Under the pieces are notes generated by a model. The model was not told the DNA's origin and made no database searches. It saw nothing but the letters and a program-made list of their open reading frames with translations. A program made the position numbers and the translations under genes. This document shows positions 44,508 to 63,507 of a stretch of DNA of 64,000 nt, one piece after another. The DNA is from Anaerolineae bacterium. GTDB lineage: Bacteria; Chloroflexota; Anaerolineae; B4-G1; SLSP01. The stretch spans positions 12,472 through 76,471 of the forward strand of contig JBNGCW010000001.1 of assembly GCA_049975525.1 (NCBI GenBank). The letters run 5' to 3'. Every line of letters begins with the position of its first letter. Position 1 is the first letter of the stretch.

Positions 44508-47500
44508 TTACTGTCGGAATACCAGCGGCAAGTACAGCGTCGGCAACTCGATGTTCAGATACTCGCCTTTGGCTGTGGCCAGTGTCACGTTCCCGGCGGC
44601 GTCCACCGCCTGGATGAAATAGCCGATGTTGAACCACGATGAGCTGCTGGTCTCGCCGATCCAGCGCTCGCCGGTGACGTCGTTGGGATCACGCTCCAAG
44701 GGGAGGCTCCAGATGCGCGTGGGGGAAAGGAAGGTGGCGTAGACGGCTGCCACTTCACCCTCGCCGTCCAGGGCCTCGGCGGCGATGTGCAGCTGCTGAC
44801 CATCTACCGTGGCGACGGCGTTGCTTACAGAAGGTGGACCGTAGTCGGTCTCGTCAGCGGTGAGGAGGACGCCCACTTTCATCTTGTCGATGAGCCGCAG
44901 CTCCGCAGTGGGCGCGTTGAAGAGGGCGAAGGTAGCAACCAGCTGCGGTGTCTCTCCTGCCCGGTTGACGACGAGAGGATGGGTGGGTATCCAGCCCAGG
45001 TCGGGATTCAACGCGGGCTCGGGCTGGGCCGTGTCGGTGACGGGACGGGTGATGACGGGATCGAAGTCGGGATAGGCGGTGAGCGTCGCGGTGAGCAGCA
45101 GAGAGCCGTGAGGGATCGCGTTCCCGCTCTCGATTGCGAAGGAAGCCGTCGGCAGGAGCGGGCGACCGGTGGCGCCGTGCGCCCCGCCGTTCGCGGTGTA
45201 ATACACGCCATGGGCGCCGTCATGTCGTTCCAGCGTCGGCTCCAGCACATGCATCGTTATCTGTTGTGGGCTGACCCGCGGTTCGGTGAGGGGGCGCAGA
45301 GGCGTTTCTGGGGCTGTCTGAACGGTCACCGGCGTGTCGATTTCGTACATGGGCAGGCCGTAGAGCGTGGCCTCCATGATGGACTTGGCGTCGTAGGGGG
45401 TCAGGCCGCCGGCCGGAAGACTGTGCAGGTAGCGTACCTTGGCCCGGCGCAGCGCCTCGCCGACGGCCATGCGGTCCGCTTCGCCCAGCGCCTGGGTGAA
45501 GAGCGTCATCAGCTGCTCGGAGCCGGCGATACCGTCGTCGGTTCCGTAGCCGTAGCCCGTGTTGGCGATCCAGACGGCCCCCTGTTGTGCCAGCGCTTGC
45601 GGGAAGTCCGGCTTGGTTTGACTTAGGCTGGCGTCGCCGTCGGGCACGCTGTACCCGGCGTGACAGCCCATGGACCACGCAACGGTGCCGCTGAGCGCAG
45701 CGGTGGCGTTGACGATGTGCGTGTTGTAGAACGTTGTGCTGGTGTCCGCCGGTTGGAGCCGCCAGTGTTCGAAGTGCGCGTTGATGGATGCCAGATCCGG
45801 TGCCTCGGTCGCGCGGTTGGGCCAGGCGTTGATCAGCTGATCGGCGGTCCAACTCTCACTGATGAGGCTGTCGTCGACCTGGGCGGCGCCGTGGGTAGCG
45901 CCCAGATCCTCTGCGATCTGTCGTGCTGCGTCACTGAGGAAGTCGTAGCCGGTGACCAGGGCGTCCTGCGATGTTAACGTGGGCTGTGACAAGAACTGCT
46001 CGATCATGTCCGCGATCTCCGCCGGCGCCTCCACCAGCCGCCCCGTGGCGAGCAGCGGTCGCCAGAAATAGTGCCCGCGCCAGCCCAGTTCCTGACCCGG
46101 CGGCGTGCCGTAGGCGTCGTCGGTGAGGTAGAAGCCGCCTTGGGTGGCGGAGCGCAACGCGCCGGGCAGCGTCGCCGAGCCGTGAGTGTACTCGCGTTCG
46201 TTGGCGATGATCGCGTGATCCGGTTGTCGATACATGGGAATCTGAGCGTCGTCGCCGACCACGACAACGTATTGGATAGTATTGAACTGGGACAGTGTGG
46301 GAGAAATGATCTGGGTGCGAATGGCTTGGACGACGTTGTTAGCCATCTGAGGATCGCAGTAGTTTTCGTTCCAGATTTGATAGGTGGCCGCCACTTCCGA
46401 GTTAAACTCGACGGGATAGAGCAGACCTTGTGTCGCCTCGGCCAGCTCTTCGAGGCGGGAGGAGAGAGCGCCTATCTCGGTGTAAGTTCCGATCATGCGG
46501 GCGGGGTTGTAGAGGATCAGGGTCTGGGGGGTTGCACTACCCCAGTAGGGGGTGTGCGAAGTGGAGGTATAAGGTAGGTGTGTACACACCTCACCGGGGA
46601 TGGGTGTGGCTCGCGTGGAGAGCGTATACGGTGAGGGGGAGTAAGTCTCATCTTCCGTACCTACCACGAGAATGTAGTAAATACCGGCCTTATCGGCGGT
46701 CAGCTGCACCTGTTCCCCTTCGGTGTCCGCGTTGGCAGAGGTGGCCCACCAGCCTCGGGTCGCCCACCAGCCGCGCGTGGCCCACCAGCCTCGGGTCGCC
46801 CACCAGCCGCGTGTGGCCCACCAGCCGCGCGTAGCCCACCAGCCCCGGATGCTCTCCACGCTGGCATCCTCGGCTGTTTCGGCGCCGTCGTCCAGAGCTC
46901 CGAGATCCCGGCCGGGCGCGAGGGCGGGTAGGAGAGAAGGATCCGGCAGCACCAGCAAGTCGTAGTCGGCAGGTAAGTCTTCCAACGTCACGGTGAGCAC
47001 GGAAGGGGAGATGACCTCGACGGCGTACCAGTCGATGTCGCCCGGCTGCCCGATGGTGGCCGTCAGCTCGACATTGAGGTCAATGGGTGCGGCGGTATCG
47101 GGAGAGTCGTTGGGTTCGTAGTCATCCGTTATGGGCTCGCTTGAAGGCGCGAACCCTCGCTCGTGGCCCACCACCAGAATCTCACCCTCGGCGCTGATCT
47201 CACCCGTGCCATCGAAGGTTCCAAGCTCCGACATTTGTTTCTGATCCCACTCCAGACTGGCGTGAGGGGCGATATGACGTTGGGTATAGAAGACGGGAAC
47301 CCCGCCCGCATCGAAAAGCGTCAATGTGACCGTGACGGTCTCCGAGTTGGGATTGTGAACCCAGTAGCTCGTGGCATGCGTGCTGTGTCGATGAACGGCG
47401 GGTAAGTAGACAGGGCTCCCCGAGGCATAAGAGGGAGATAAGAGATAGCCGTCCACGTCGCCGCCTGCGGTGGCGTCGGTTGGCCTGTCGAGCACCAGAC

Positions 47501-48600: not shown

Positions 48601-51600
48601 TTATGTTTTTTGACTGTGAGAACTTCCTGTCCACTGCCGATATAGTCGGTTGACCGTATCCAGATCACCGGACGCCCCCAGTCGCTCGAAGGCAGCGCGC
48701 GCCTCTGCAAGACGTTGAAGCCCCCGCGAAGGGCTGTCACACTGGTGGAGATAGCGCGCTTCTATCAACCGCAGGTGGGCTCTCTCATAAGGATCCTGAG
48801 CGCTATCGGTGACGCTCCTGGCCTGATGGAGTGCGGTCTCTGCAGCGGGGCAGTTGTCAAGCGCAAGGTGAATCTCCACCCTGAGTCGTTGAAGGGGGCC
48901 GTTTTCCTGCGTGGCGCCCTGATCCGCTACGATCTGGAGGGCTTGTTCACATTGTTTCAATGCTTGAGTTGTGTTTCCTGTTTTGTGGGCCAACGCGGCG
49001 TGAAGATAATAGATATCGGGCAGAAGCGTTCCCGAGCCTAAAGCGTGGGAAAGGGACTCGGCCTGCGTCAGATGTTCTCTGGCCTCCTCCCAGTTTTTTT
49101 CTTGGAGGGCAATAGCGGCCAAGTTGATTTCCATGACGGCCTCCCCGAAGGTGATCCCCCGATCCCGGGCGATTTTCAAGGCGCGTTGATAGGCCTGACG
49201 GGCGGCGTCAAATTTCCCTTGATAGCGGTAGACCTCGCCCAGGTTGGCTGCGACCCGCGCTTCGCCTTCCACGTAGTGGATGCGCCGGGCAAGCATCAGC
49301 GCTTGCTCGCCGTGCTCAACCGCCTGATCCCACCGTCCCAAATTCAAGTGCACCAGCAGCAGATTTGTGCGGGCGTTGACTTCACCCATCAGATCGTGAA
49401 GCTCGCGGTAGATAGCCAGACTCTCCTCACTGAGCGAGCGAGCCACCTCCAGGTGTCCCTGTTGGTATTCCAGGGGGGCCAGAGCGTAAAGGGCTTGCGC
49501 CTGCACGCGGCGCGCCTCGATTCCGCCGATCCCTCTGGCGACCTCAATCGCGCGGTTGTTCCAGAGCTTGCCTTGCTCATAATGACCCTGCTTATAAAAG
49601 AGCGAGCTGCCACGAAGGTACAGACGGGCACCCTCTAAGGTCTCTTTGACGTGGGGCAGGGCCAACCCCCGTTCCACAGCTTGAAAAGCTTCCTTGATCT
49701 CCCCCTGTGTCTCCAAAGTCGAAGCGATGTGGTATTCAAGGTGGGCCAGTTCTTCGATCTCTGCGGTGGTGACGGAAGGGGAGAGCAAGTGGTGCGCCTG
49801 TTGAAGGTGCTGGAGAGCTTCAGGATACTGTCCCTGGATGGTCAGGGTCTCGCCCAGGAGGTGATGAGCTTCTGTTCGGAGACGCATGTCTTCGATCTGA
49901 CCGGCTTTCAACGCTTGGAGGACCCGCCGGAAAGCCTGGGCGGCCTGTTCCATCAAGTAGTTTTCCAAAGCCCGGTGTCCCAGATCCAGGTTGGCTCGAA
50001 CGGCAATTGGCCATTGCTGTCCTTCAAAAGCGTGATGGGCCAGCAGCGCCAGCCAATTCGACGTGGCGTGCTCTCGTTGCTCGTCGAGGTACGCGGAGAG
50101 ACGGCGGTGGATCTGTCGGCGGATGCGGTAGGGCAGGCCGCGCCGGGCCACCTCGCGGACCAGCGGCTGCTGGAAGATCAGCGTTTCGTGTCCGGGATCG
50201 CCGTAGACCAACCCCATGGGGCTCAGGCTTGCCAGACGCTGCTCCACGATGGAACGAGGCTCTTCCCCGTATCCCTCCACCAGCATGGACATCGTCATCT
50301 GCTCACCGACGATGGTGGCGGCGCGCAACAGGTGGCGGCTGGGGGGCTCCAGCTGGTCGATGCGGCTTTGGATCAGACCGTAGGTGGTCTCAGGCAGCGG
50401 TGCCTCTTCCAAAGGACGCGTGAGGGCCCAGCCTTGTTCCTCGCGTTTCAGCAGGCCGGCCGCGCGCAGGGCGCGCACGGCCTCGATGGCGAAGAGTGGC
50501 TGTCCTTCTCCCCGGCGGAGGATCCAGCGCTTGACCTCCAGGGGCAGGGTGTGGGTACCGGCTGCGTACTGTGCCAGAGCGCTCATGGCCTGATCCGAGA
50601 GGGGAGGGAGGTGCAGGTCCACTGCTTTGGCCGGTGGCTGCCACCTCGCAAGAAACGCGTCCTCGTCCCTATAGGTGACGATGAGCAGGAAACGCCCCGT
50701 CGGAGGTTCGTGTAGCAGGCTTTCCACGAGGCGCAGAGAAGGGGCCGGCATCCAGTGGGCGTTTTCCAACACCAACATCAGCGGCTGGTGTGCGGCATGG
50801 GCCGTAAGCAGGTCGCGCAGCACGGCCTGACGTTGGGCTTCGCGTAGCTCCGGCGAGAGTGCCTCCACCTCCGGTGAAGGTTCGATGTCAAGACCTACCA
50901 GCGGGGCCAACAACGCCGCCCACATCTCTTGCTCCTGTTGGGCCAAGACCTCGCGTAGGATGGTGGGGTGCGCCTTGGACGGAAAGTCGTCCAGTCGGAG
51001 CAGATCGCGGAGAGGGCGTTCCCAGGCGGCGTAGGGTAAGTGTCCGCCGTAGGAGGGCGCCGTGCCCGCATAGGTGACAAACCCATCGGCGCGGGCCTCC
51101 TCGTTAAAGCTGCGCACGAGTCGGCTCTTGCCGCTGCCGGCTGCGCCATGCAACAACACCACGCCCGCCTCCCCCACCAGGGTCCTCTGCAGCGCTTCCC
51201 TAAACCTTTTCAGCGTGGCGAGGCGACCGACTAAAGGTAACGACTCCAACTCCTCGCCGGCGAAGAGCCTGCGCACGCCTTGAGCGAGGTAAGGGGTGAT
51301 GAGCTCCCGTTTGCCTTTGAGGTGTTGAGCGGGGGCCGGTTGGACCTCCACCCGCCGACTGACGCTGCTGTGCTGGGCGGTGTGCGGTCCCAACCAGACC
51401 TCCCCGGGTTCGCAGCGGTTCATCAGACGATAGGCCAGGTTGACGGCGTCGCCCATCACCGTGTACTCCCGGCGTGCATCGGTGCCCACATCGCCGGCAA
51501 AGACAAAGCCCGTGTTGATGCCCACTTGGAGCGGTACGTCGATGCGCTCTTGCAGTTCCAGCGCGGCCATCACGGCGCGCAGTGGATCGTCCTCATGCGC

Positions 51601-52728
51601 CTGGGGTGCGCCGAAAAGCGCCATCAGATAGGCGTCCTCGGGGCCGATGCCGATCTTGTTGACCGTCCCGTCGTAGGTACGGATGATGTCGCGGATCTGG
51701 ACGAAGAGGGCGTTGGATTGTGCCACCGTCCCCTCCAGCTGTTGGGGCGACTCACGGTGCACGGTGAAGTCCGGCAGGGCGGCGAGGGCGATCATCAAAA
51801 TGGTGACGTGGCGGTGCTCGCTCCACAGCCGAAAACGATCCAGCGCCGTAAGCGCGGTGAGGCGCTTCAGGAGCTCGGGGGCCAGATAGGGGGAGAGTGC
51901 GTCCAGCCGCGTCAGCAGCCACTGCGTCTGCTCCGGGGCGGAGAGCCCTTCGGGAAGCTGGGGCAGGGGAGCGGTTTGGGGTTCCACGTCCAGTGGCTGA
52001 TGCGGGGAGACCAGGAACAGCTCAGGCTCTTCCAGGGGGGTGCAATGAGCGATTTCGGTAGCGCATTGATGGGTGGAGGCGTGCAGTACGACGCCGCCGG
52101 GCGGCGCGGCCTGCTGCGCTCGCCCCATCTGCTGCAGTGGTGTCCCGGTCAGCAACCAGTTGCGGTGATCGGGCGTGCCCAACCCCACGCCGATCAGCTC
52201 GCCGCTGGAGACGCCGATGGCGATGCGGAAGGGGAAAGGACCCAGCGACGTCTCGACCTCGTCCATGGCCTGCATGGCGCGCTGCGTCTCCAGCGCAGCG
52301 GCGATGGCGCGTTGAGCGTGCTGGGTTCCCGTGAAGAGCAGCAGGCCGGCGTCGCCGCCGAACTTATGGAGATCTCCGCCGTAAGGCAGAGCCGCTTCAA
52401 TCAACAGGTGCAAAAAGCGGTTGACCAGCTCCGTCACCTCTTCGGCGCCGCTCTGTGATTCGTCCTGAGAAAAACGTTCGGTCAGCGCCGTGAACCCGTC
52501 GATGTCGGCAAAGACGACTGTCCCCTCCAGCGGGAGGATAATGGGGGTCGTTACCGGACGCTTCAGTAAATGCTGGGTCAGACCCTGGGGGAGATACGTG
52601 GTGACGGTATCCAGCAGATGTTTAAGCCGTTGAGGCAGCTGGGGAGTATAGCGCAGAATCCTCTTCAGCCACGCCGGGTGAGTGGAGGTCGGCTCGCTCT
52701 CCGTGGTCGGCTCTTTGAAGGTTGACAT
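48601..52728 (-). CDS. signal-transduction protein: two tandem class-III nucleotidyl-cyclase domains, STAND/AAA+ P-loop NTPase, C-terminal TPR array
   Basis: Cyclase domain 1 (VVFADIDGFTAL...KFGGDAGLL) and domain 2 (GIGPEDAYLMALFG...MGDAVNLAYRLMN). Walker A GAAGSGKSRL; about 450 aa of TPR repeats. Start ATG 52728 with GGGAGA RBS. Confidence 0.8.
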   Translation of the reverse strand: MSTFKEPTTESEPTSTHPAWLKRILRYTPQLPQRLKHLLDTVTTYLPQGLTQHLLKRPVTTPIILPLEGTVVFADIDGFTALTERFSQDESQSGAEEVTELVNRFLHLLIEAALPYGGDLHKFGGDAGLLLFTGTQHAQRAIAAALETQRAMQAMDEVETSLGPFPFRIAIGVSSGELIGVGLGTPDHRNWLLTGTPLQQMGRAQQAAPPGGVVLHASTHQCATEIAHCTPLEEPELFLVSPHQPLDVEPQTAPLPQLPEGLSAPEQTQWLLTRLDALSPYLAPELLKRLTALTALDRFRLWSEHRHVTILMIALAALPDFTVHRESPQQLEGTVAQSNALFVQIRDIIRTYDGTVNKIGIGPEDAYLMALFGAPQAHEDDPLRAVMAALELQERIDVPLQVGINTGFVFAGDVGTDARREYTVMGDAVNLAYRLMNRCEPGEVWLGPHTAQHSSVSRRVEVQPAPAQHLKGKRELITPYLAQGVRRLFAGEELESLPLVGRLATLKRFREALQRTLVGEAGVVLLHGAAGSGKSRLVRSFNEEARADGFVTYAGTAPSYGGHLPYAAWERPLRDLLRLDDFPSKAHPTILREVLAQQEQEMWAALLAPLVGLDIEPSPEVEALSPELREAQRQAVLRDLLTAHAAHQPLMLVLENAHWMPAPSLRLVESLLHEPPTGRFLLIVTYRDEDAFLARWQPPAKAVDLHLPPLSDQAMSALAQYAAGTHTLPLEVKRWILRRGEGQPLFAIEAVRALRAAGLLKREEQGWALTRPLEEAPLPETTYGLIQSRIDQLEPPSRHLLRAATIVGEQMTMSMLVEGYGEEPRSIVEQRLASLSPMGLVYGDPGHETLIFQQPLVREVARRGLPYRIRRQIHRRLSAYLDEQREHATSNWLALLAHHAFEGQQWPIAVRANLDLGHRALENYLMEQAAQAFRRVLQALKAGQIEDMRLRTEAHHLLGETLTIQGQYPEALQHLQQAHHLLSPSVTTAEIEELAHLEYHIASTLETQGEIKEAFQAVERGLALPHVKETLEGARLYLRGSSLFYKQGHYEQGKLWNNRAIEVARGIGGIEARRVQAQALYALAPLEYQQGHLEVARSLSEESLAIYRELHDLMGEVNARTNLLLVHLNLGRWDQAVEHGEQALMLARRIHYVEGEARVAANLGEVYRYQGKFDAARQAYQRALKIARDRGITFGEAVMEINLAAIALQEKNWEEAREHLTQAESLSHALGSGTLLPDIYYLHAALAHKTGNTTQALKQCEQALQIVADQGATQENGPLQRLRVEIHLALDNCPAAETALHQARSVTDSAQDPYERAHLRLIEARYLHQCDSPSRGLQRLAEARAAFERLGASGDLDTVNRLYRQWTGSSHSQKT

Positions 52729-53040: not shown

Positions 53041-53997
53041 TCAGGATGTTGCCGGTGGGGGGAGTGTGGCGTAGATGCGCGCCCGGGCGATCTTGCCCCG
53101 CGGTGGGCCGACGCGGGTGAGCTTGCGGCGCACCACCTCCCGCGCGAAGAGGGCGCAGCGCATCGGAGGATTGCCGTCCAGCAGCGCCACCAGAAAACCG
53201 GCCCAGAAAGCATCGCCCGCGCCTGTTGCATCCACCACCTTCACCGCCGCGGCGGGGATGTGGGTGATGTTCTCCGCTTGGGAGAGCAGGATGCCGTCTC
53301 GTCCCATGGTGAAGACGACCAGCTCCGGCCCCATGGCGTGGTAGCGGGCGATGTAGGCCTCCGGCGTCTCCCCCGGGCCGAAGAGGCGCTCCGCATCGTC
53401 CAGTGAGGGCTTGGTCAGGCGGACGTAGCGGAAAAGTCCTCTGAGCACGGCCAGCGCTTCCTCACGGTCGGGCCAGACGGGGGGATTGTAGTTGGGGTCC
53501 AACGAAATCAGTTTGCCCTGGGCGTGCGCCAGGCGAAAGGCCTTGGCGATGGCCGAGCGCGCCGGTTCCCGCGAGAGCGCGAAGGTCGAGGCGTGGACGA
53601 TGCGCGCCCGGCCGATGATCGCCGCGTCGATCTCGTCCGGCGAGAGGCGGTAATCGGCCTGACGCAGCGCCAGAGAGTCGGCGGTGCCCGGCGTGCGCGT
53701 GATGAAGATGGTCGTGGTGTACACCGCCGGGTCCATGATCAGCGCCTCGGTGCTGACGCCGGCTTCCGCCAGTTCCGCCTTGAGAAAGTGGCCGAAGTCG
53801 TCGGCGCCGGTCTTGGAGACGAGCGCCGCCCGCTTGCCCAGCGCCGCGACGTAGCGGGCCAGGTTGGCGGGCGAGCCGCCCTGGTAGCGTGCAAAGTGCC
53901 GCGCGTCGCGTATCCGCTCCACTTCCTCGGTGGAGATCATGTCGACGACGGTCTCGCCGATGGCCAGCAGGTCCAGGTCGCCCTCGGGGATCTCCAT
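53041..53997 (-). CDS. PfkB-family carbohydrate kinase (fructokinase / ketohexokinase-like)
   Basis: N-terminal GG motif (YQGGSPANLA) and C-terminal DATGAGDAF anion-hole motif. Confidence 0.8.
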   Translation of the reverse strand: MEIPEGDLDLLAIGETVVDMISTEEVERIRDARHFARYQGGSPANLARYVAALGKRAALVSKTGADDFGHFLKAELAEAGVSTEALIMDPAVYTTTIFITRTPGTADSLALRQADYRLSPDEIDAAIIGRARIVHASTFALSREPARSAIAKAFRLAHAQGKLISLDPNYNPPVWPDREEALAVLRGLFRYVRLTKPSLDDAERLFGPGETPEAYIARYHAMGPELVVFTMGRDGILLSQAENITHIPAAAVKVVDATGAGDAFWAGFLVALLDGNPPMRCALFAREVVRRKLTRVGPPRGKIARARIYATLPPPATS

Positions 53998-54003
53998 GGG
54001 CGC

Positions 54004-55140
54004 CTACCCTGCTGATGGCTTGTTGAGGAGGTCGCGCAGGCGGCGGGCCACCTCCTCAGGCGTGCCCTGACAGATGTAAAGCCCCAGGTGCTCCAGGCCG
54101 CCGATCTCCTGGGTGTAGGGCAGGAACTCGAAGTAGAGCCCCGCGCCTGGCCCATTGTGGGTCACGATATTGTAGGCGATCTCCCGCCCGATGGACGGCA
54201 TGACGGCGCGGATAGCGCGGATGGCGTCGTGCCAGCCCTCTGCCACCGCTGTGATCTCGTCAGCGTCGAGTTCGTGCAGATACCGCTTGCGCACGTCCTT
54301 CAGCACCAGCAGCATATCGTAGGGCCGCCGCATGAAGTAGGGGACCAGGAGCGTCGCGGGGCCGTAGTCGTCTACCCGCAGGGAAGCGGGGTTTTCGCGC
54401 AGCATGTAGGCCGCGAAGGTCTCCCCGTGGGCCTGAGCGAAGCGCCAGTTATCCAGCAGGCGCCGGGGGATCAGGTTGCTCAGCGCGATCTGCTGGTGCC
54501 CGTGGATCAGGGAGCCGCCGACCAGGTGCCCGTAGTTCTTGATGATGGAGACGAAGACCGGCGCGGCAGTGGGATTGTGCGGCGAGGGGGGCAGCCCCTC
54601 CGCCCCTTGCTCCAGCAGCGTTTTCTCCAGCGCCGCCAGCCGCTGCATGACGACGACGCGGTCGGCCTGGGGCATGTTGTGCCAATCTCTGTCGTGGTGC
54701 GACGAGGTCCACTGGAGCAGGTGCAGACCGGCGGCCGGCCCCGGCGCGGTGGCAGCCGGCGACGGCGGCGTCTCCTGCAGATCGGGGTAGAGCACGGGGT
54801 AGAGGTTCTTGTTGATGAAGGTCACGCCCTCGCTCAGCGGCGCGACGTCGAGGATGCCCGTGGTCTTCCCCTGGCAGACCACGCACGCGCGCTCCGGCGG
54901 CTCGGGCGGTGCCTTCTCGTCGGGCCGATTGTCGTGGGGGCGCCGCGCACGGGCCGCGTTGAAGACGATGCGCTCGCCGTTGCGCGGATCGATCTGAAAG
55001 ACGCCGTCGGGCCGGAAATCGGCCAGTCCCGGCTCCTCCCGCACGGACTGCGCGAGTTGCTCGAAGGAGAGCGCGGTGACGTCACCTGCTTCGATGAGAG
55101 CGGTAAGCTGTTCAGATTCAAGCCGTTGATCAGATGACAC
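54004..55140 (-). CDS. GalT-like HIT-superfamily nucleotidyltransferase (galactose-1-phosphate uridylyltransferase-like)
   Basis: CVVCQG zinc-knuckle-like motif and HGHQQ (HxHxQ) HIT-like motif. GTG start 55140 with GGGAGGA RBS. Confidence 0.45.
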   Translation of the reverse strand: MSSDQRLESEQLTALIEAGDVTALSFEQLAQSVREEPGLADFRPDGVFQIDPRNGERIVFNAARARRPHDNRPDEKAPPEPPERACVVCQGKTTGILDVAPLSEGVTFINKNLYPVLYPDLQETPPSPAATAPGPAAGLHLLQWTSSHHDRDWHNMPQADRVVVMQRLAALEKTLLEQGAEGLPPSPHNPTAAPVFVSIIKNYGHLVGGSLIHGHQQIALSNLIPRRLLDNWRFAQAHGETFAAYMLRENPASLRVDDYGPATLLVPYFMRRPYDMLLVLKDVRKRYLHELDADEITAVAEGWHDAIRAIRAVMPSIGREIAYNIVTHNGPGAGLYFEFLPYTQEIGGLEHLGLYICQGTPEEVARRLRDLLNKPSAG

Positions 55141-55197
55141 GTTTTATCCTCCCGTGACAGCGAATTGACGGGATTCAATGGATGCCGCCATCAGATG

Positions 55198-55376
55198 CAA
55201 AAAATCCGTTACATCCGTTCAGTATTCTGAGAGGTGCGACGCACTTAAGAATGCAAATCCTACTGCATTCTCATGAGCGTCGTAAGAAGCCTGTGGCTCT
55301 CGTGGATTTGAGCTCGAAAGTGCGTTGCACCTGTCGTCTGCTCACAGGACTAAACGATTACAAAATCCGTTACATC
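55198..55376. repeat. structured intergenic element: 17-nt direct repeats AAAATCCGTTACATC flanking a 15-bp long-range inverted repeat and an inner perfect hairpin
   Basis: Direct repeats at ~55198-55216 and 55360-55376. aggtgcgacgcactt (55232-46) pairs with aagtgcgttgcacct (55318-32). Inner hairpin gaatgca-aatcctac-tgcattc (55249-70). Confidence 0.45.
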
Positions 55377-56722
55377 TTCATGGCTTCCAGAAACGCCGGC
55401 ACCTGCTTCGACCACGTGAAGTAGGGCACGGTGATCTCCAAAGCCCGACGGCCCATCCTACGTGATAAAGCCTGATCCGTCAAGAGGCGCGTGAGGGCGG
55501 CCGCGAAACCGGCGACGTCGTCGGCCTGCACCACGATGGCACCTTCGCCCCGGCGCAAGGGGTGATCGCTGTCGGGCACCTCCACGCTCTCGACCTCCTC
55601 TCCCAGCAGGTACTCCGTGGCGAAGGGCACCCGGTGGCTGGCGATGACGGGCACGCCCGTCGCCGCCGCCTCCTGGGCCGACATGCCGAAGCCCTCCATC
55701 ACCGAGGGCGTGCAGTAGATGTCGGTGACGGCGTAGACCTTAGGCAGCCGCTGGGGGATGGAGCCCACGACGGCGACGTCGTGCTCCAGGCCGCGCGCGC
55801 GGATCAGCGCCCGCAGCTCCTCGGCCAGAGGCTGCCGTGGGTCGATGGCGACGACGAGCAGGCTCTCCGGCACCTCCGCGTGGGCGCGCGCGAAGGCCTC
55901 GATGAGCACGTCCTTGCGCTTGGTCGTATCGGTGCGGCTGATCTCGGTGACGATCTTGCGGCGACGCACTTCCTCCGCTGGGAGGCCCGCCCGCTCGCCC
56001 AGGAAGGCCCAGATGGGGTCGCCAGCGTCGATCTCGCGGGGATGGTAGCGGTCGGTGTCGACGCAGGGCGGTAAGAAGAGATCGGGGCCGTCGTAGCCGT
56101 AATCTTCGCACAGCGATTGGCGGATGGTGGAGGAGGTGGCGACGACGCCGTCCACCGCCGCGACCAGCTCGCGCTCCATGGCGATGCGCGCGTCGATGCG
56201 CAGCTCGCTCCATCGTTCGGGCGCCACGTTGCGCTTTTTGACGGCGCCCAGCGAGTGCGGGATCCAGGCGTGGAGCGCAGGCGTCGACCGGCGCCGATTG
56301 TAACGCACGCCCAGCGCCGCGCCGTCCCAGTAGTGGGAAAGGATCAGATCCACCGGCGTTTTTTCTAACCCCAGCGTCTCGTCCAGTTCGGTCGTCAGGT
56401 GTGGCAGCCGCTCCGCCATCTCCTCCTTGCGGACGAAGGCGGCGAGGCCGTCCTGGAGATAGAGGAGGCGTTGGAAGTCGTCGCGGTAATGAAACCCGCG
56501 CCGCAGCTCGTGGGTGAGGGGATGCGCGTAGCCTCCGCGATTCACAATCGTGATCTTGAAGCCCTGCTGCGCCAGTTCCGCCGTGAGCCGGTTGACGAAG
56601 ACGTTCTGTCCGCCGGTGTCGGGCAGTCCAGGCTTGACCTCCCACTGGTGGATCCCGTGGTTGGTGATCATCAGCACGTGCGGGCGGGAGGACAGCCGGA
56701 AACGCGTCGCACTTTTCGCCAT
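55370..56722 (-). CDS. family-4 glycosyltransferase, sucrose-phosphate-synthase-like
   Basis: MITNHGIHQWEVKPGLPDTGGQNVFVNRLTAELAQQG matches the SPS / sucrose-synthase GT-B N-terminal motif; C-terminal half is GT4-like. Confidence 0.65.
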   Translation of the reverse strand: MAKSATRFRLSSRPHVLMITNHGIHQWEVKPGLPDTGGQNVFVNRLTAELAQQGFKITIVNRGGYAHPLTHELRRGFHYRDDFQRLLYLQDGLAAFVRKEEMAERLPHLTTELDETLGLEKTPVDLILSHYWDGAALGVRYNRRRSTPALHAWIPHSLGAVKKRNVAPERWSELRIDARIAMERELVAAVDGVVATSSTIRQSLCEDYGYDGPDLFLPPCVDTDRYHPREIDAGDPIWAFLGERAGLPAEEVRRRKIVTEISRTDTTKRKDVLIEAFARAHAEVPESLLVVAIDPRQPLAEELRALIRARGLEHDVAVVGSIPQRLPKVYAVTDIYCTPSVMEGFGMSAQEAAATGVPVIASHRVPFATEYLLGEEVESVEVPDSDHPLRRGEGAIVVQADDVAGFAAALTRLLTDQALSRRMGRRALEITVPYFTWSKQVPAFLEAMKM

Positions 56723-56737
56723 GCGTGCTGCTCCTCC

Positions 56738-57646
56738 CTAGGCGCCCTTGATGCCGCTGGTCGCCACGCTCTGCACGAACCACTTCTGGAATATCAAGAA
56801 GACGATGAGCACCGGCACGGTGATCATCGAGGCGAAGGCCATGATGTCGCCCCAGAGCCGGGGATCCTGTCCGAAGAAGGCCTGCATGCCGATGGTGAGC
56901 GGGCGCACGTCACTGCCGCGGGTGACCATGAGGGGCCAGAGGAAATCGCCCCAGTGCGTCAGGAACTGCAGGATGGCGACGGTGGCGAAGACGGGTTTGG
57001 AGAGGGGCAGCACGATGCTCCAGAAGATGCGCAGCCGGCTGGCCCCGTCGACCAGCGCGGCCTCCTCCAGCTCTTTGGGGATTCCGAGGAAGAACTGGTG
57101 GAAGAGGTAAATGGAGAAGGCGTCGGCGATAAAGGGGATGATCTGCACGTGGTAGGTATCGAGCCAGGTTGTGGAGCCGTCGAACCAGGGCAGGTTGTTG
57201 ACCAGAAGCAGCAGTGGTACGGCGACCGACTGGAAAGGGATGATGATCAGCGCGACGATGATCGATAGAATGGTCTCCCGGCCTTTGTACTCCAGCCGCG
57301 CCAGCGCGTAGGCGATGAGACTGTTGACGATCAAGCCCAGCGTCACCATGGTGCCGACGATGAAGACTGAGTTGAACATCAGCTGTCCGAAGTTCGTCTG
57401 CTGGAAAACGTCCCGGTAGTTTTGGAAGCCCAGGTCGCCCCGGGGGATGAAGGCGTAGAGCGTGCTCATGTCGGTGGTGACTTGCATCTCGCTGTTCTTG
57501 ATGGAGGAGACCAGCATGAAGATGATGGGAAAGAGGAAGAAGAACCCTATCACGCTCATCAGCAGATAATTCAGGGCCAGTCGGATGAACTTGCGGAGCC
57601 GGTATTCAAAACTATACGGAGATTCCTTCCGTTTTGTCATCTCCAT
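56738..57646 (-). CDS. carbohydrate ABC transporter permease (MalG-like)
   Basis: Six TM helices; EAA loop region ...EAALVDGASRLRIFWSIVLPL. Confidence 0.85.
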   Translation of the reverse strand: MEMTKRKESPYSFEYRLRKFIRLALNYLLMSVIGFFFLFPIIFMLVSSIKNSEMQVTTDMSTLYAFIPRGDLGFQNYRDVFQQTNFGQLMFNSVFIVGTMVTLGLIVNSLIAYALARLEYKGRETILSIIVALIIIPFQSVAVPLLLLVNNLPWFDGSTTWLDTYHVQIIPFIADAFSIYLFHQFFLGIPKELEEAALVDGASRLRIFWSIVLPLSKPVFATVAILQFLTHWGDFLWPLMVTRGSDVRPLTIGMQAFFGQDPRLWGDIMAFASMITVPVLIVFLIFQKWFVQSVATSGIKGA

Positions 57647-57648
57647 AC

Positions 57649-58566
57649 CTACCTTTCCGTGGGCAAGAAACGGCGCTGGATGATGGAAACGCCCAGCACG
57701 ATGAGGAAAAAGACAATGCTGATGGCAGCGGCATATCCAACCCGCAAGTTACCCCATCCCTGGTGAACCAGGTGGACGATGGTCGTCATCGAGGCGTTCT
57801 GCGGGCCGCCCTGCGTCATCACCTCCACCTGAGTGAAGAGCTTGAAGGCCAGAATGGTGGTTGAAACCACGACGAAGATCGTGGTGTTGCGCAGTTGGGG
57901 CAGCGTGATGAAGAAGAACTGTTGGATCTTGTTCGCGCCGTCGACCTCGGCAGCTTCGTAGAGATAGTCAGGGATGTCTTGTAACCCCGCCAGAAAGATC
58001 ACCATCTGGAATCCCGCGCCCTGCCAGATGGAGAGCACCATGATGGCCGGGAAGACCAGTTTGGTGTTCTGCAACCAGTTAAAAGGGCCCACGGCGCCAA
58101 AGGTCACCGTCTGGATCACGGCGTTGATCAACCCGTCTGGGTTATAGAGAAAGGTCCAGATGATGGCCACGACGACCATGGTGGTGACCACCGGGCTGAA
58201 GTAGATGGTCCGAAAAACGGTCGTACCCTTGAGCTTCTGGTTGACCAGCAAGGCCAGGAAGAGCGCCAGGCCGGTCTGCAACGGCACGACGACGGCTGCG
58301 AAGTAGAAGTTGTTCAGCAATCCTCGCAGAAACGCTTCATCCTCCAGCAGGCGCAGGTAGTTGCGGAGACCGATGAAGCGGGTCGGTAGATTGGGGTTGG
58401 GGATCAGGCGTTGGTCGGTAAAGGAAAGCCCGATGGCCATGAAAAAGGGCACGGCGAGGAAGATGATCAACAGCAGGAGCGCCGGGGTGGAGAAGAGCCA
58501 GGCGATGATCGCTTCGGTGCGTTTGCGTTTTGAGAGACTCGAACTCTCTGATGTGTTGACAGTCAT
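57649..58566 (-). CDS. carbohydrate ABC transporter permease (MalF-like)
   Basis: Six TM helices; EAAEVDGANKIQQFFFITLP EAA motif. Confidence 0.85.
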   Translation of the reverse strand: MTVNTSESSSLSKRKRTEAIIAWLFSTPALLLLIIFLAVPFFMAIGLSFTDQRLIPNPNLPTRFIGLRNYLRLLEDEAFLRGLLNNFYFAAVVVPLQTGLALFLALLVNQKLKGTTVFRTIYFSPVVTTMVVVAIIWTFLYNPDGLINAVIQTVTFGAVGPFNWLQNTKLVFPAIMVLSIWQGAGFQMVIFLAGLQDIPDYLYEAAEVDGANKIQQFFFITLPQLRNTTIFVVVSTTILAFKLFTQVEVMTQGGPQNASMTTIVHLVHQGWGNLRVGYAAAISIVFFLIVLGVSIIQRRFLPTER

Positions 58567-58642
58567 GTTCGCCTCCCTGATGACTCATTGGGAGCAGGTT
58601 GGCCTGCTCCCAATGAGCGATTTGGTAGGTCGCAGCCCAGGG

Positions 58643-59986
58643 TTAGTTCTCCGGGGCCGGGTATCCCTGATTGTCCTGGATATCCTGATCGATCTTGTCC
58701 ACTGCTTTATCCAACTCCTCCTGCACGTCGGCGCCGGCCACGATGTTGTTCACAGCCTCGGCGAAGGAAGAGGTGATGACGGGATAGGCCGGGGTCGCCG
58801 GGCGGGGAATCGCCACGCCGCCCTGCAGTTGCTGCACGAAGATGTTCAAGGGTCCGCCTTCTGCGTAGAGCTCCGACTGCTTGATGGCGCTCACGCGGGC
58901 GGGCACCGCGCCGTTGGCGTTGGTCATGCGTAGAATCTGTTCAGGCTCGATGAGGTACTCCAGGAACGCCCAGGCGCCGTCGGGGTTCGGGCAGTTGGTG
59001 GTGATGCCCCAGTTCCAGGAGCCCATACCGGTGGCCGGTCGCTCGGGCCAAATGGGCATGGGGATCAGGACCAGGTCGTCGCCCAGCCCCTCACTGTGCG
59101 GCCCCCACATCCAGTGGCCGACGTAGGAGAGGGCGGCGACTTTCTTGCCGTAGAAGTCGTCGTCGCCGCCGGGTTCGGCGATGGCATAGCCGTCTTCGAA
59201 GAGACTCTGGAACCACTCCATTGCCTTGACGGCCTCGGGGCCGTTGAGCACGCCGTCGGCGCTCTGGTAGTCGCTGCGATTGATGAGGTCACCGCCGAAG
59301 CCCTGCACGATGGGCGAGAAGCCGTAGGTGAACCATTCGCCGGCGCCGTAGTTCATCTTCAGGTCCAGCGCGTACTCCACCTCGTCTAGCGCCTGGAGTT
59401 TCTTGAGCGCCTCCTTGAACTCCTCGAAGGTCCAGGCGTCGTCGACACTCTTCGGGATGCGCACCCCGGCCGCTTCCAGGTAGGCTTTGTTGCCCCAGAT
59501 GGCCAGACCGGAGTCGAAGGTGCCCAGGCTGTAGAGGTTGCCCGCATAGGTGCCCTGTTCGATGATAGAGGGCAAGAAGTCGTTGCGCAGTTCATCGGAG
59601 ACATACTCGTCGATGGGCCGCAGATAACCGGACCAGGCGTAGTTGTAGAGGAAGGGGCCGTCGAAGTCCAATAGGCAGGGCAAGTCGCCGGCCAGCGCCG
59701 CCGAGTTCACCTGATCGTTGTAGGAGCCCTCCGGCAGCTTCACCGCGTTGATCTGGTATTTGTCCTGCATGGCGTTGAAGTCCTCTACCTGGGCGTTGAG
59801 CACGTCGCGCTCTTCGCCCTTGCCGGAGTGGAACCAGACCTCGATGGGGATCGGCTCGGCGCTTTCCTCTTCCGTGGGTTTCTCTTCCGGGGGCGCCTTG
59901 GTGGCCCCACCACCACAGGCGGTGAGGAAGAGCGAGGTGACGACCAGAAGACTCCACAACATCCAAATAGCGTTTCGCTTACGCAT
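58643..59986 (-). CDS. ABC transporter extracellular solute-binding lipoprotein (family 1, sugar-binding)
   Basis: Lipobox LFLTAC; 447 aa. Coordinates follow the ORF track; the line numbering disagreed by 1 nt here. Confidence 0.85.
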   Translation of the reverse strand: MRKRNAIWMLWSLLVVTSLFLTACGGGATKAPPEEKPTEEESAEPIPIEVWFHSGKGEERDVLNAQVEDFNAMQDKYQINAVKLPEGSYNDQVNSAALAGDLPCLLDFDGPFLYNYAWSGYLRPIDEYVSDELRNDFLPSIIEQGTYAGNLYSLGTFDSGLAIWGNKAYLEAAGVRIPKSVDDAWTFEEFKEALKKLQALDEVEYALDLKMNYGAGEWFTYGFSPIVQGFGGDLINRSDYQSADGVLNGPEAVKAMEWFQSLFEDGYAIAEPGGDDDFYGKKVAALSYVGHWMWGPHSEGLGDDLVLIPMPIWPERPATGMGSWNWGITTNCPNPDGAWAFLEYLIEPEQILRMTNANGAVPARVSAIKQSELYAEGGPLNIFVQQLQGGVAIPRPATPAYPVITSSFAEAVNNIVAGADVQEELDKAVDKIDQDIQDNQGYPAPEN

Positions 59987-60166
59987 TGCGTTCCTCCTTC
60001 TTGGTAAGATTTGGGTTTAAACAACGTTGGATGCAATTCACAAATATATTTGTCTTTCGAGGGCCTGTTGCACCTCCTTTCTTGTCTTGCGGCTCTGCCG
60101 ATCCTCTGACAGGCTCTCCGTTGGTCTTTTTCAGGCCGACTATCCCAGGGTAGCCGGGTGGTGGGA

Positions 60167-61183
60167 TCACGCCGACGAAGGTGGTGCGGTGGAGTTGCGA
60201 ATGACCAATTCGACGTCAAGGTATTCGTGAACCGGCTTGATGTCGGGTTGCTTCAGCGTGTGGAGCAGGAGTTCTACGCCGCGTCGTCCAGACTCGAAGA
60301 GCATCTGGCGGACGGTGGTCAGTTGCATGATGTCGGCCAGTTCGATGTCGTCGTAACCGATCACCGAAAGGTCCTCTGGCACGGCAAGGCCCAGGTCGCG
60401 CGCGGCCTCCAGCACACCCACGGCCTGGGTGTCGCTGGCGGCGAAGATCGCCGTGGGGCGCTCCGGTTGGGCGAGCATCTCCCGCGCCAACTCTCGGGCC
60501 TGATGCCGTCCGTGTTCGCCCTCGGCGTAATACGCTACTTGGAAGGGAAGGCCGGCAGCCTCCAGGACGTTGCGGTAACCCCGGTAGCGGTCGCGGCTGG
60601 AGCGAAAGTTGAAGGGGTTATCGATGATATCCCCGATGAAGCCGATGCGTCGGTGTCCCAACTCGACCAAGTGTCGGGTGGCCAGCTCGCCCCCGGCGAC
60701 ATCGTCGACGTTGACCTGGTGGAACATCTCCAGGGCAGGGTGCTCGGAGTCGATGAGTACGATGGGGAACTCGACTTCGGTCAACCGTTGAGCTTCTTCG
60801 TCGAAGGGGGGAAGTGAGAGGAGCAGCGCGCCATCCACCAGCTCGCGCGGGGGCAGATTCTCAAAGCAGCGTCGTCGCAGTTCCGGCGTATCGACGTTGT
60901 AGATCAGCAGATCGTAGGGGCTTTGGGAGAGAAGACTGACCACGCCGTTGAGCCGTTCGCTGAAAGCCGGGCGGGTGAAGAAGGGGACAATGACGGCGAC
61001 GGTAAGCGTTTTTCCCAGGGAGAGCCGCCGGGCTACAGGGTTGGGCTTGTAATCAAGCTTCTCAATGATCTCAAGGACATGTTGGCGGGTGGTTTCGCTG
61101 ACCAGTGGGCTGTCGTTCAACACGCGCGAGACCGTTCCCAGGCCGACGCCTGCTTCTCGGGCTACGTCACGGATGGTGGGCAC
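60167..61183 (-). CDS. LacI-family transcriptional regulator
   Basis: N-terminal HTH PTIRDVAREAGVGLGTVSRVLN and a periplasmic-binding-protein-like C-terminal domain. Confidence 0.85.
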   Translation of the reverse strand: MPTIRDVAREAGVGLGTVSRVLNDSPLVSETTRQHVLEIIEKLDYKPNPVARRLSLGKTLTVAVIVPFFTRPAFSERLNGVVSLLSQSPYDLLIYNVDTPELRRRCFENLPPRELVDGALLLSLPPFDEEAQRLTEVEFPIVLIDSEHPALEMFHQVNVDDVAGGELATRHLVELGHRRIGFIGDIIDNPFNFRSSRDRYRGYRNVLEAAGLPFQVAYYAEGEHGRHQARELAREMLAQPERPTAIFAASDTQAVGVLEAARDLGLAVPEDLSVIGYDDIELADIMQLTTVRQMLFESGRRGVELLLHTLKQPDIKPVHEYLDVELVIRNSTAPPSSA

Positions 61184-61208
61184 CTGCTTGCACCCCCTCT
61201 CAAGGCTA

Positions 61209-61222
61209 TGGAACCGGTTCCA
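61209..61222. promoter_or_regulatory. LacI-family operator-like perfect palindrome TGGAACCGGTTCCA
   Basis: Fits the TGnAAnCGnTTnCA consensus; lies 26 nt upstream of the LacI-family gene start. Confidence 0.5.
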
Positions 61223-61453
61223 ACCCTATCATAGCATAAAAAGAGGGTCTTTGTCAAGGGGGAATTGGTTGCACTGAAATAACTCAGACAAAGCGAAGTC
61301 GGGGTACTTCTCCCCTCAAGCTGTGACCGGTGTCCCCACCGCGCCACCGCAGAGGGAGGGGTGAGCGGTTTTCGGCCTTCAGGCAGCGCGGTGTGGGCAG
61401 CGCAGAACGGCACTTCACTGCGTTCCGTACCCGACTGCAAACCGGCGTCGCCT

Positions 61454-61480
61454 TGTCTATTTCCGTGGGTATGTTATAAT
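61454..61480 (+). promoter_or_regulatory. sigma70-like promoter for tRNA-Gly (TTGTCT-16-TATAAT)
   Basis: -35 TTGTCT at 61454-59 and -10 TATAAT at 61475-80, 10 nt upstream of the tRNA 5' end. Confidence 0.6.
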
Positions 61481-61490
61481 AAGGGTCGTC

Positions 61491-61562
61491 GCGGGCGTAG
61501 TTCAGTGGTAGAACGTCAGCTTCCCAAGCTGAATGTCGCGGGTTCGAGTCCCGCCGCCCGCT
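61491..61562 (+). tRNA. tRNA-Gly (anticodon CCC)
   Basis: Cloverleaf: acceptor gcgggcg/cgcccgc, D arm gttc-agtggta-gaac, anticodon stem tcagc/gctga with loop ttCCCaa, T arm gcggg-ttcgagt-cccgc, discriminator T. CCA is not encoded. Confidence 0.9.
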
Positions 61563-61578
61563 CTGAGGTATCAAAAAA

Positions 61579-61605
61579 GGCCGGAGCGCAAAGCTCCGGC
61601 CTTTT
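61579..61605. terminator. bidirectional rho-independent terminator
   Basis: aaaaaa-ggccggagc-gcaaa-gctccggcc-tttt. Terminates the tRNA on the plus strand and the MalK-type ATPase gene on the minus strand. Confidence 0.75.
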
Positions 61606-61627
61606 CCATATCTCTGTATCCCCGTGA

Positions 61628-62728
61628 CTAGCGGATGGCTTCTTCGGTATCTCTGTTGAAGAGGTGCATGCGGCTCATGTCGAAGGCGGCACGCTTGGTC
61701 ATCCCCACGCGGACCTTGGTGCGCGGGTCCAGGCGTCCGAGGAAGTTGGTGTTCTCGGTGGCGAAGTAGGCGATGACCTCGTTCCCCATCAGCTCCGTCA
61801 CGTCCACTTTGGCCTCGACGTACGCGGGCTTGATGCCCGGCGGCGCGTACTCGGGGTCGTGGATGTGCTCCGGGCGCACGCCCATGATCAATTCCTCGCC
61901 CAGATACGGCTTGTAGGTCTCATGGCGGTCCTCGGGGATCTTCACGCGGAAGTCCTTGCAGTCCGCGTACATCTCGCCGTCTTCCTGGATCAACGTGACG
62001 TTGAAGAAGTTCATGGAGGGGCTGCCGATGAAGCCGCCGACGAAGACGTTGGCGGGCTCGTCGTAAAGCTTCTGGGGCGTGTCAACCTGCTGCAGGATTC
62101 CGTCCTTGAGCACGGCGATGCGGGTACCCATGGTCATGGCCTCCACCTGGTCGTGGGTCACGTAGATGAAGGTGGTGCCCAGGCGCTGGTGCAGCTTGGA
62201 GATCTCCGCGCGGGCCTGTACGCGCAGTTTGGCGTCCAGGTTGGAAAGCGGCTCGTCCATCAGGAAGACGTTGGGCTCGCGCACGATAGCGCGACCGACG
62301 GCCACGCGCTGGCGCTGCCCGCCGGAGAGCTGTTTGGGCTTGCGATCCAGCAGCTGCTCGATGCCCAGGATCTGCGCGGCCTCTTTTACCCGGCGGTCGA
62401 TCTCCGTCTTGGGGATTTTGCGCAGCTTCAGGCCGAAGGCCATGTTGTCGTAGACGCTCATGTGAGGGTAGAGGGCGTAGGATTGGAAGACCATGGCGAT
62501 GTCGCGGTCCTTGGGCGGCACGTCGTTGACCAGGCGGTCGCCGATGTAGATTTCGCCCTCGGTGATCTCCTCCAGGCCGGCCAACATGCGCAGGCTGGTG
62601 CTCTTGCCGCAGCCCGACGGGCCGACGAAGACCAGGAATTCCTTGTCCTCGATTTCGATGTTCAGATCTTTGACGGCGACGACGTCGCCAAAGCGTTTTG
62701 TGACGTTTTTATAGGTTACGCTTGCCAT
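61628..62728 (-). CDS. sugar ABC transporter ATP-binding protein (MalK/UgpC/MsmX family)
   Basis: Walker [10 protein letters not shown], signature [10 protein letters not shown], Walker [13 protein letters not shown]-terminal TOBE domain. Start ATG 62728 (MASVTY...) with AAGGAGA RBS. Confidence 0.85.
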
Positions 62729-62778
62729 GTGCGTTCTCCTTTTGCGCTCTGCTGAGTTCACGGATAAGATGCTACTTT

Positions 62779-63507
62779 CTACGTCAGGACGATCTGCACG
62801 CCGGCTTCACTGAGATCCCAGAGAGGGGCGTTGGAGGCCTCTCGGCCGGTGATCAAGACATCTACCTCGCCGGCCGGCGCGATCAAGAGGGCGCCGGCTC
62901 GTCCCACCTGTTGCGGGGACAGCAATACCATGATCTGGCTGCCGAGTTCGAAAAGGGCGCGTGCCATGCCCGCGTAGCGGATGTGATCGTGGGTCAGGCC
63001 GCTTTCCGCGTCCAGTCCTCCCGCCTCCAGCACCACCCAATCGACCAGGAGGTTGGACTGCGTGGTCAGGTTCCCGAAGATGGCGTAGTGTTCTTCGACT
63101 TGTCCGCCGATGAGATGAAGGGGATGCTGGCCGGTCTGGGCGACGCGCCACGCCACGTCCAGGGCGTTGGTGATGATGGTCAACGGTCCCTTATCCTCCA
63201 AGAAGGGGACGATCTCCGCTGTAAAGTCGCCTGGGGCGAGGAAAACAACGCTCTTTTCCGGTATGAGGCGGGCGGCCGCTTCGCCGATGCGCCGTGCCAG
63301 CTCGCTGGGCGGGGAGCGCGAGGCGTGCTCCCGGGGGACCGCCCCCCCGTACACCCGCCGCAGCTGCCCCGCCTCTTCCAGCCGGTTTAGATCCCGGCGG
63401 ATGGTCACCGGATTGACACCCAGCTCCTCCGCCAGGGCGGTGACTCGTACGCTGCCACGCTCTCTCAGGGTTTCTAAAATTAAGGTCCGTCGTTCAGTGC
63501 CTAACAT
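62779..63507 (-). CDS. DeoR-family transcriptional regulator
   Basis: N-terminal [42 protein letters not shown] and a DeoR C-terminal sensor domain. Confidence 0.85.

Follow-up and report, generated by a model that had tools for sequence, protein, structure and literature searches.

How does a bacterial protein with two nucleotide cyclase domains in a row build its active site, and what would that site make? The question is raised by a minus-strand gene in a 64,000-nucleotide stretch (the window) of contig JBNGCW010000001.1, which comes from an uncultured lineage close to Anaerolineae and Thermoflexia. The encoded protein begins with two tandem class III cyclase domains and continues into a STAND-type P-loop NTPase and a tetratricopeptide repeat (TPR) array (Table 1). 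An earlier note on this DNA had proposed that the two cyclase domains carry complementary half-sets of catalytic residues and pair with each other inside one chain, as a pseudo-heterodimer. That observation is correct, and the pseudo-heterodimer reading is supported. On the strength of sequence comparisons and a predicted structure, the N-terminal 490 residues probably form a catalytic core of the soluble adenylyl cyclase (sAC, ADCY10) type, class IIIb.

Both halves of this core are recognised by the Pfam model PF00211. The whole protein scores 57 bits in two stretches, and the halves searched separately reach 23.8 bits (domain 1, E 3.8e-5) and 44.5 bits (domain 2, E 1.7e-11), the curated cut-off being 21.9 bits. 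Compared with one another by BLASTP, the domains show 25% identity. Catalytic positions were mapped residue by residue through HMMER alignments to human sAC and to the guanylyl cyclase Cya2, and through the BLASTP alignment of domain 1 with domain 2; the roles of the human sAC residues were taken from Table 1 of PMC12867704 and from PMC12250328. The span originally discussed, 51289-52560, corresponds to residues 57-480, and all seven peptides quoted from it are found in the 1375-residue open reading frame.

Domain 1 holds both metal-binding aspartates, D75 for metal 1 and D126 for metal 2, as had been claimed. It also retains a lysine, K122, a point absent from the earlier account. The transition-state Asn and Arg were said to be missing from this domain. 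The Asn is indeed gone, with Q199 in its column, but an Arg is present: R203 stands in the canonical Arg column, where BLASTP pairs it with R434 of domain 2. The purine position of domain 1 is L192, neither Thr nor Asp. In domain 2, the first metal Asp is replaced by Ala as described, but the aligned column is A314 and not A317 (both are Ala). An insertion of three residues has to be bridged before D365 aligns with the second metal Asp, and 145 of 151 relatives have Gly in its column. K358, N430 and R434 are all kept in domain 2, and T423 stands at the purine position. The alignments to sAC and Cya2 and the internal comparison bear out the division of the half-sets: D75 and D126 of domain 1, with K358, T423, N430 and R434 of domain 2, make up a complete six-residue catalytic set for one interface site. 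Human sAC has the same residue at each of these positions, and at K122 (Table 1). An arrangement with two active sites was rejected, as domain 2 has no metal-1 Asp and domain 1 has neither the Asn nor a Thr or Asp at the purine position.

The same division is seen across the family. An HMMER scan with residues 1-492 against 1.84 billion representatives yielded, at E<=1e-30, no fewer than 1370 clusters. Of the top 150 representatives, nearly all align over residues ~33-487 as one stretch, and most are 1300-1450 residues long. Column counts were made after aligning these 150 back to the query, for 151 sequences in total; the 150 were picked by similarity to the query, and the informative part of the counts is the contrast between columns. 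The metal columns D75 and D126 are each Asp in 149 sequences, N430 is Asn in 147, and R434 is Arg in 146. T423 is Thr in 135 and Ser in 11 (146/151 together), and K358 is Lys in 93 and Arg in 38 (131/151). The K122 column is Lys in 117 of the 151. At the mirror positions the picture is one of drift. Column 314 is most often Asn (88), then His (14), Ser (9), Gln (8), Ala (7) and Asp (4), and column 199 is divided among Asn (43), Glu (22), Ser (17), Ala (16) and others. The domain 1 Arg is poorly kept, with Arg in 26 of 151 at column 203, next to Ala (23), Glu (23), Gln (20) and others. The pseudo-heterodimer split is kept family-wide, beyond chance, and one nearly invariant composite site set among drifting mirror positions is what selection on a single interface site leaves behind.

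Two further observations came out of the family search. The residue two after the domain 2 Lys is Asp in 126 of about 150 relatives, giving a K-x-D motif; the column is Gly in the query's clade (G360) and Phe in human sAC. The top matches also include a eukaryotic sequence, the 5195-residue EukProt transcript P0149, which has four matched cyclase stretches and may contain two tandem sAC-like cores in one giant polypeptide.

The core had first been likened to mammalian adenylyl cyclase in general. The C1/C2 division of labour behind that likeness is found, but the nearest analogue is sAC (class IIIb) and not the transmembrane enzymes. sAC is the best analogue because of its sequence, the loop insertion in domain 2 and the C-terminal STAND and TPR architecture. 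The best PDB sequence match of domain 1 is human sAC C1 (4clf residues 37-195, E 4e-17), with the next match at 1e-11. Domain 2 matches the Cya2 guanylyl cyclase (2w01, E 3e-15) and sAC C2 (residues 316-426, E 2e-13). Its K-to-F spacing of 14 is identical to that of sAC C2 and three residues above that of Cya2. This small insertion in C2 has been described as the element that forms the bicarbonate site of sAC (PMC11006738).

Structure prediction gave the same answer. An AlphaFold2 model of residues 1-492, made from a 20-sequence alignment, has a mean predicted local distance difference test score (pLDDT) of 88.3 and a predicted template modelling score (pTM) of 0.87. The intramolecular dimer that had been proposed takes a sAC-like two-domain arrangement in this model, and the predicted core, taken as one unit, matches monomeric sAC in a superposition of 408 residues. 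The linker between the domains is modelled with helices at 264-281 and 284-292, and pLDDT is low at 296-299. In a Foldseek search of the PDB, the top 24 matches are all human sAC cores (E ~1e-29, TM 0.70-0.77 over ~490 columns). The C1a/C2a pair of transmembrane adenylyl cyclase 9 (AC9) ranks after sAC, and single-domain cyclases reach a query-normalised TM of only ~0.32. In the model, accordingly, the two domains pair head to tail within the chain as a pseudo-heterodimer. Identities to the query are 24% to sAC, 18% to AC9 and 14% to 6yii, a cyclase-like protein from Pseudomonas aeruginosa. The fold alone cannot separate sAC from the transmembrane cyclases; the sequence, the loop insertion and the Thr do.

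The Thr also bears on the product. It had been argued that Thr at the purine-specifying position of domain 2 leaves the choice of nucleotide open, and this is not borne out. Class IIIb is partly characterised by the replacement of the substrate-binding Asp with Thr (PMC2613629), and Thr405 of human sAC, with which T423 aligns, contacts adenine (PMC12250328). In Plasmodium ACbeta the catalytic motifs are split over two sAC-like domains, and a Thr has been noted there too (PMC3383692). In the specificity columns, the guanylyl cyclase Cya2 has Glu and Gly where the query has Lys and Thr. Cyclic AMP (cAMP) is the product expected from the sequence, because the Lys/Thr pair is the adenine-recognising pair of class IIIb. 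The prokaryotic class IIIb adenylyl cyclases that have been tested, including the Chloroflexus aurantiacus enzyme, yield cAMP and respond to inorganic carbon (PMC2613629, PMC11006738).

These results suggest a working model. The two cyclase domains would pack head to tail in one chain, creating one competent interface site and one degenerate, pseudo-symmetric pocket. The metal ligands D75 and D126 would come from domain 1; from domain 2 would come K358 and T423, which recognise adenine, and N430 and R434 for the transition state. K473, in a K-G-K motif near the end of domain 2, probably contributes to the active site as well; by analogy with other class III cyclases, this motif presumably binds the triphosphate. 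We infer that the competent site converts ATP to cAMP and pyrophosphate. The mirror pocket, lined by A314 and the beta2/3 loop of domain 2 and by K122, L192, Q199 and R203 of domain 1, would be catalytically incompetent. It is a likely allosteric site by analogy with sAC, where the pocket takes bicarbonate, and with the transmembrane cyclases, where it takes forskolin. The C-terminal STAND ATPase and TPR array would most likely switch cyclase output in response to a ligand or a partner, which is also what has been proposed for full-length sAC.

Several details sit less easily with a close copy of sAC. The human enzyme binds bicarbonate in its pseudo-symmetric pocket through K95 and R176, and R176 switches D99 (PMC12250328). 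In the query, the R176 equivalent is one residue out of register: G202 aligns with R176 by HMMER, and R203 follows. The displaced Arg is not kept among the closest homologues, the five nearest having R/R/L/K/Q at column 203. A170 aligns with K144, which contacts pyrophosphate in sAC, and the family column is mixed (Lys 71, Ser 32, Arg 23, Ala 9). The beta2/3 loop reads GPED (362-365) in the query, as against a family consensus of Y-D-K-G and FDKG (338-341) in human sAC (PMC12867704). Most non-mammalian sACs are without the bicarbonate residues and are controlled by pH, not by bicarbonate (PMC12867704). The Lys95/Arg176 pair thus marks a bicarbonate-regulated subset and not the whole sAC family. 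Because the R176 column is Gly, the next Arg is unconserved and most non-mammalian sACs do without these residues, the sequence does not allow bicarbonate control of this protein to be predicted with confidence.

Could the tandem pair be something other than an intramolecular adenylyl cyclase? It might act as a non-catalytic nucleotide sensor, with ATP occupancy of the interface relayed to the STAND/TPR region and no cyclic nucleotide made, for which 6yii, a solved tandem protein, is a precedent. The missing K144 equivalent and the divergent beta2/3 loop would suit such a role. We nevertheless consider it very unlikely, as one site has the full canonical set of six catalytic residues and these are strongly conserved family-wide, which is unexpected for a pure binding domain; moreover, 6yii is not detected by sequence with either domain at E<=1, and is less similar to the query than sAC is (14% versus 24% identity). 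The pair might also be catalytic but make another cyclic nucleotide, either cGMP, as Dictyostelium sGC does, or cCMP or cUMP, as the Pycsar anti-phage cyclases do. Dictyostelium sGC leaves a residual doubt about cAMP, since it has soluble-AC topology and yet is a guanylyl cyclase (PMC8684759), and the PADLOC models for PycC match both domains (best 49 bits, E 1e-13). The K358/T423 pair, at positions where Cya2 has Glu and Gly, argues for adenine all the same, no gene for an effector that binds cyclic nucleotide monophosphates (cNMP) adjoins the cyclase gene, and a 1375-residue STAND/TPR protein is not a two-gene Pycsar module. A product other than cAMP therefore seems most improbable.

The composite site might, finally, form between chains, if domain 1 of one molecule paired with domain 2 of a second one, as in a swapped homodimer or a STAND-driven oligomer; oligomerisation would then be the on-switch. 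STAND proteins are generally known to oligomerise on activation (cited in PMC12802110), the 60-residue linker (241-302) would permit swapping, and the AlphaFold input was a monomer. The monomer model nonetheless sets the domains in the sAC arrangement with a pTM of 0.87, it superposes on monomeric sAC, and human sAC and the transmembrane adenylyl cyclases use the intramolecular arrangement. We give pairing between chains a very small chance. The logic of complementary half-sites is identical for either kind of pairing. An intramolecular sAC-type cyclase remains the reading that we prefer.

Some established identities were also tried for the protein and rejected. The TOMM system kinase/cyclase fusion model (TIGR03903) reaches 174 bits against an equivalog cut-off of 705.75, and its match spans only domain 2, the AAA domain and the TPRs. 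Pycsar PycC models give generic matches of at most 49 bits; PycC is a single-domain cyclase, compared with tandem domains in 1375 residues here, and no effector gene is next door. A transmembrane adenylyl cyclase (class IIIa) is contradicted by Thr rather than Asp at residue 423, and Pfam finds only cyclase, AAA_16 and TPR domains, although no search was aimed at transmembrane helices. Long plus-strand open reading frames overlap the cyclase gene (for example 51280..52458). Antisense frames of this kind are expected in DNA of 65% G+C, and these are unsupported.

Table 1. Features of the tandem cyclase gene and its surroundings. Positions are those of the window; sAC is the human enzyme.
Feature	Window position	Strand	Residues	Basis or content
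Tandem cyclase gene, whole	48601..52728	minus		Single intact open reading frame of 1375 residues, from the list of open reading frames
N-terminal helical segment with conserved Y-L-P motif (YLPQ, 45-48)	52561..52677	minus	18-56	AlphaFold helices 18-27, 31-43, 48-56
Cyclase domain 1 (C1-like), putative metal-ligand donor	52033..52545	minus	~62-232	Pfam PF00211; sAC C1 match
Metal-1 Asp (sAC D47)	52504..52506	minus	D75	HMMER alignment to 4clf
K-F-G-G-D: pseudo-site Lys (sAC K95) and metal-2 Asp (sAC D99)	52351..52365	minus	K122-D126	Alignment to sAC
Degenerate transition-state region of domain 1: L192, then TGTPLQQMGRAQ	52114..52155	minus	192; 194-205	HMMER and BLASTP alignments
Inter-domain linker with conserved helical LxPYLP segment	51823..52008	minus	~241-302	AlphaFold and homologue alignment
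Cyclase domain 2 (C2-like), putative donor of base-recognising and transition-state residues	51274..51822	minus	~303-485	Pfam PF00211
Column of first metal Asp, Asp lost	51787..51789	minus	A314	Aligned to Cya2 metal Asp
Lys (sAC K334), then extended beta2/3 loop I-G-I-G362-P-E-D365	51634..51657	minus	K358-D365	HMMER alignment to sAC C2
Gly at the K-x-D Asp column	51649..51651		G360	Family alignment
T423 (sAC T405), N430 (sAC N412), R434 (sAC R416)	51427..51462	minus	423-434	HMMER alignment
K-G-K motif near end of domain 2	51310..51318	minus	K471-K473	Family alignment: G472 is Gly in 131 and K473 is Lys in 111 relatives
AAA_16 (STAND-type P-loop NTPase)	50680..51237	minus	498-683	Pfam AAA_16, E 7e-23
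Walker A GAAGSGKS, intact	51124-51147	minus	528-535	Motif position within AAA_16
TPR array (TPR_12, TPR_MalT)	48739..49881	minus	~950-1330	Pfam
Peptide FADIDGFT			73-80	Quoted in the earlier note
Peptide KFGGDAG			122-128	Quoted in the earlier note
Peptide TGTPLQQMGRAQ			194-205	Quoted in the earlier note
Peptide MIALAALPDFT			312-322	Quoted in the earlier note
Peptide VNKIGIG			356-362	Quoted in the earlier note
Peptide REYTVMGD			420-427	Quoted in the earlier note
Peptide MGDAVNLAYRLM			425-436	Quoted in the earlier note
Upstream same-strand carbohydrate genes	53041..63507	minus		PfkB kinase, GalT-like open reading frame, GT4 glycosyltransferase, two ABC permeases, solute-binding protein, LacI regulator, MalK-type ATPase, DeoR regulator
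Open reading frame of 1357 residues	44508..48581	minus		N-terminal hydrophobic anchor
RGWWAT x6, perfect tandem hexapeptide	46740..46848	minus	579-614 of the 1357-residue product	
Protein of 2013 residues	36185..42226	minus		Alpha-amylase catalytic domain (E 7e-60), fn3 and DUF11-type surface repeats

Outside the two cyclase domains, the Y-L-P motif of the N-terminal segment is conserved (Y45 is Tyr in 108 and P47 is Pro in 133 aligned relatives). The PDB sequence matches of the TPR array are the LGN/Pins TPR proteins and the TPR sensor PH0952. An identical protein is encoded on a 6.3-kb Logan contig, and full-length homologues with 50-58% identity occur in metagenome-assembled genomes of Chloroflexota. 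In a collection of species-representative genomes, all relatives with both domains belong to Chloroflexota (Anaerolineae, Thermoflexia, Chloroflexia, Oscillochloris), and the best of them is 66% identical over the cyclase core. Publicly, the relatives carry names such as 'AAA family ATPase', 'tetratricopeptide repeat protein' and 'class 3 adenylate cyclase/TPR repeat protein'.

The upstream neighbours of the gene are a same-strand run devoted to carbohydrates (Table 1), in which the GalT-like open reading frame (378 residues) has a weak NCBIfam match only. Downstream lie genes for a 1357-residue secreted protein, a metallo-beta-lactamase-fold protein, an F420-type oxidoreductase and a 2013-residue surface protein with an alpha-amylase domain, which is probably a large glycoside hydrolase, either secreted or on the cell surface. 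No cNMP-binding gene was found near the cyclase within the window. Around the homologue P0008 (CP070764.1; context L083, 5351..7998), two genes with cNMP_binding domains lie no more than 5 kb upstream of the tandem cyclase, and a MalT-like LuxR regulator is present in the same context. That neighbourhood fits cNMP signalling by the tandem-cyclase family.

It is tempting to speculate about what the protein responds to. The pocket of the query combines K122, R203 with its one-residue shift from sAC R176, and a GPED loop with the unusual Asp365. Together with the MalT-like STAND/TPR module, this degenerate pocket may, in the Chloroflexota clade of the query, sense a signal other than bicarbonate, a carbohydrate-related metabolite or a partner protein being plausible, although we regard this as unlikely. 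If true, cAMP synthesis would be coupled to the sugar-uptake and glycan genes nearby, and the large secreted RGWWAT-repeat protein that recurs beside homologous cyclases may also be part of that link.

The gene for this secreted protein begins 20 nt past the cyclase stop codon, on the same strand. Its product has no Pfam match above cut-off (PPC reaches 17.2 bits against 25.9); neither NCBIfam nor PADLOC matches it, nor does any PDB sequence at a significant level. Homologues of its N-terminus are found directly downstream of cyclase homologues in three contexts (L002, L005 and L006), and homologues of its C-terminal half (residues ~875-1341) upstream of cyclase homologues in contexts L012-L015. 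A homologue is absent from the syntenic context L082, and the link to the cyclase is recurrent, not universal. The RGWWAT hexapeptide is repeated perfectly six times, while the underlying 18-nt DNA repeat is only an 84% match. The copies differ solely at synonymous sites, which suggests that the peptide repeat itself is maintained.

In soluble and transmembrane adenylyl cyclases alike, dividing one catalytic site between two tandem cyclase domains is an established design. Reports of sAC-like enzymes from bacteria go back to 2004, the family is very large, and the protein described here is an ordinary member of it. With the residue map in hand, relatives now named 'AAA family ATPase' or 'tetratricopeptide repeat protein' can be re-annotated as sAC-type class IIIb adenylyl cyclases. 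The C-terminal STAND/TPR region of sAC might also become easier to study with full-length bacterial members as tractable models.

Among known systems, sAC itself (4clf, 4usu, 4oya) shares the most with the query. Both have an N-terminal tandem C1-C2, with both metal aspartates and the pseudo-site Lys in C1 and the Lys, Thr, Asn and Arg in C2, and in both the C2 beta2/3 loop is longer by the same three residues. Both continue into a long C-terminal region with a STAND-type P-loop, the C-termini being likened by domain description; a STAND domain with a P-loop has been predicted for full-length sAC (PMC12802110). The two are only ~22-24% identical, and the query differs in its clear TPR array and in showing no sign of a haem domain. 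The transmembrane enzymes (AC1-9, class IIIa) likewise take their metals from C1 and their base-recognising and transition-state residues from C2, and they too have one active site and one degenerate pocket, that of forskolin. The query differs from them in the absence of membrane domains from its Pfam result, in Thr rather than Asp at the purine position, and in the extended C2 loop; in sAC, this loop is what makes the bicarbonate site out of the pocket that takes forskolin in the transmembrane enzymes (PMC11006738). Its sequence similarity to them is also lower (IIC2 E 0.005; AC9 18% identity).

Other comparisons reach further afield. By description, Plasmodium falciparum ACbeta (PfACbeta) and Dictyostelium sGC resemble the query in having two sAC-like domains that share the catalytic motifs, implying intramolecular heterodimerisation. 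PfACbeta also has the purine-position Thr (PMC3383692), and sGC has the soluble-AC topology and a C-terminal AAA-ATPase domain (PMC8684759). Neither is bacterial; PfACbeta carries low-complexity inserts and sGC makes cGMP. 6yii is called a class III cyclase-like ATP-binding protein in its PDB title, whereas the query retains the full catalytic set. Finally, the Chloroflexus aurantiacus enzyme (Kobayashi, Buck and Levin 2004, Dev Genes Evol 214:503) is, like the query, a class IIIb cyclase from Chloroflexota. By the title of that paper and by later papers that cite it (PMC11006738, PMC2613629), it is reported to conserve the functional domain structure of sAC and to respond to bicarbonate or inorganic carbon.

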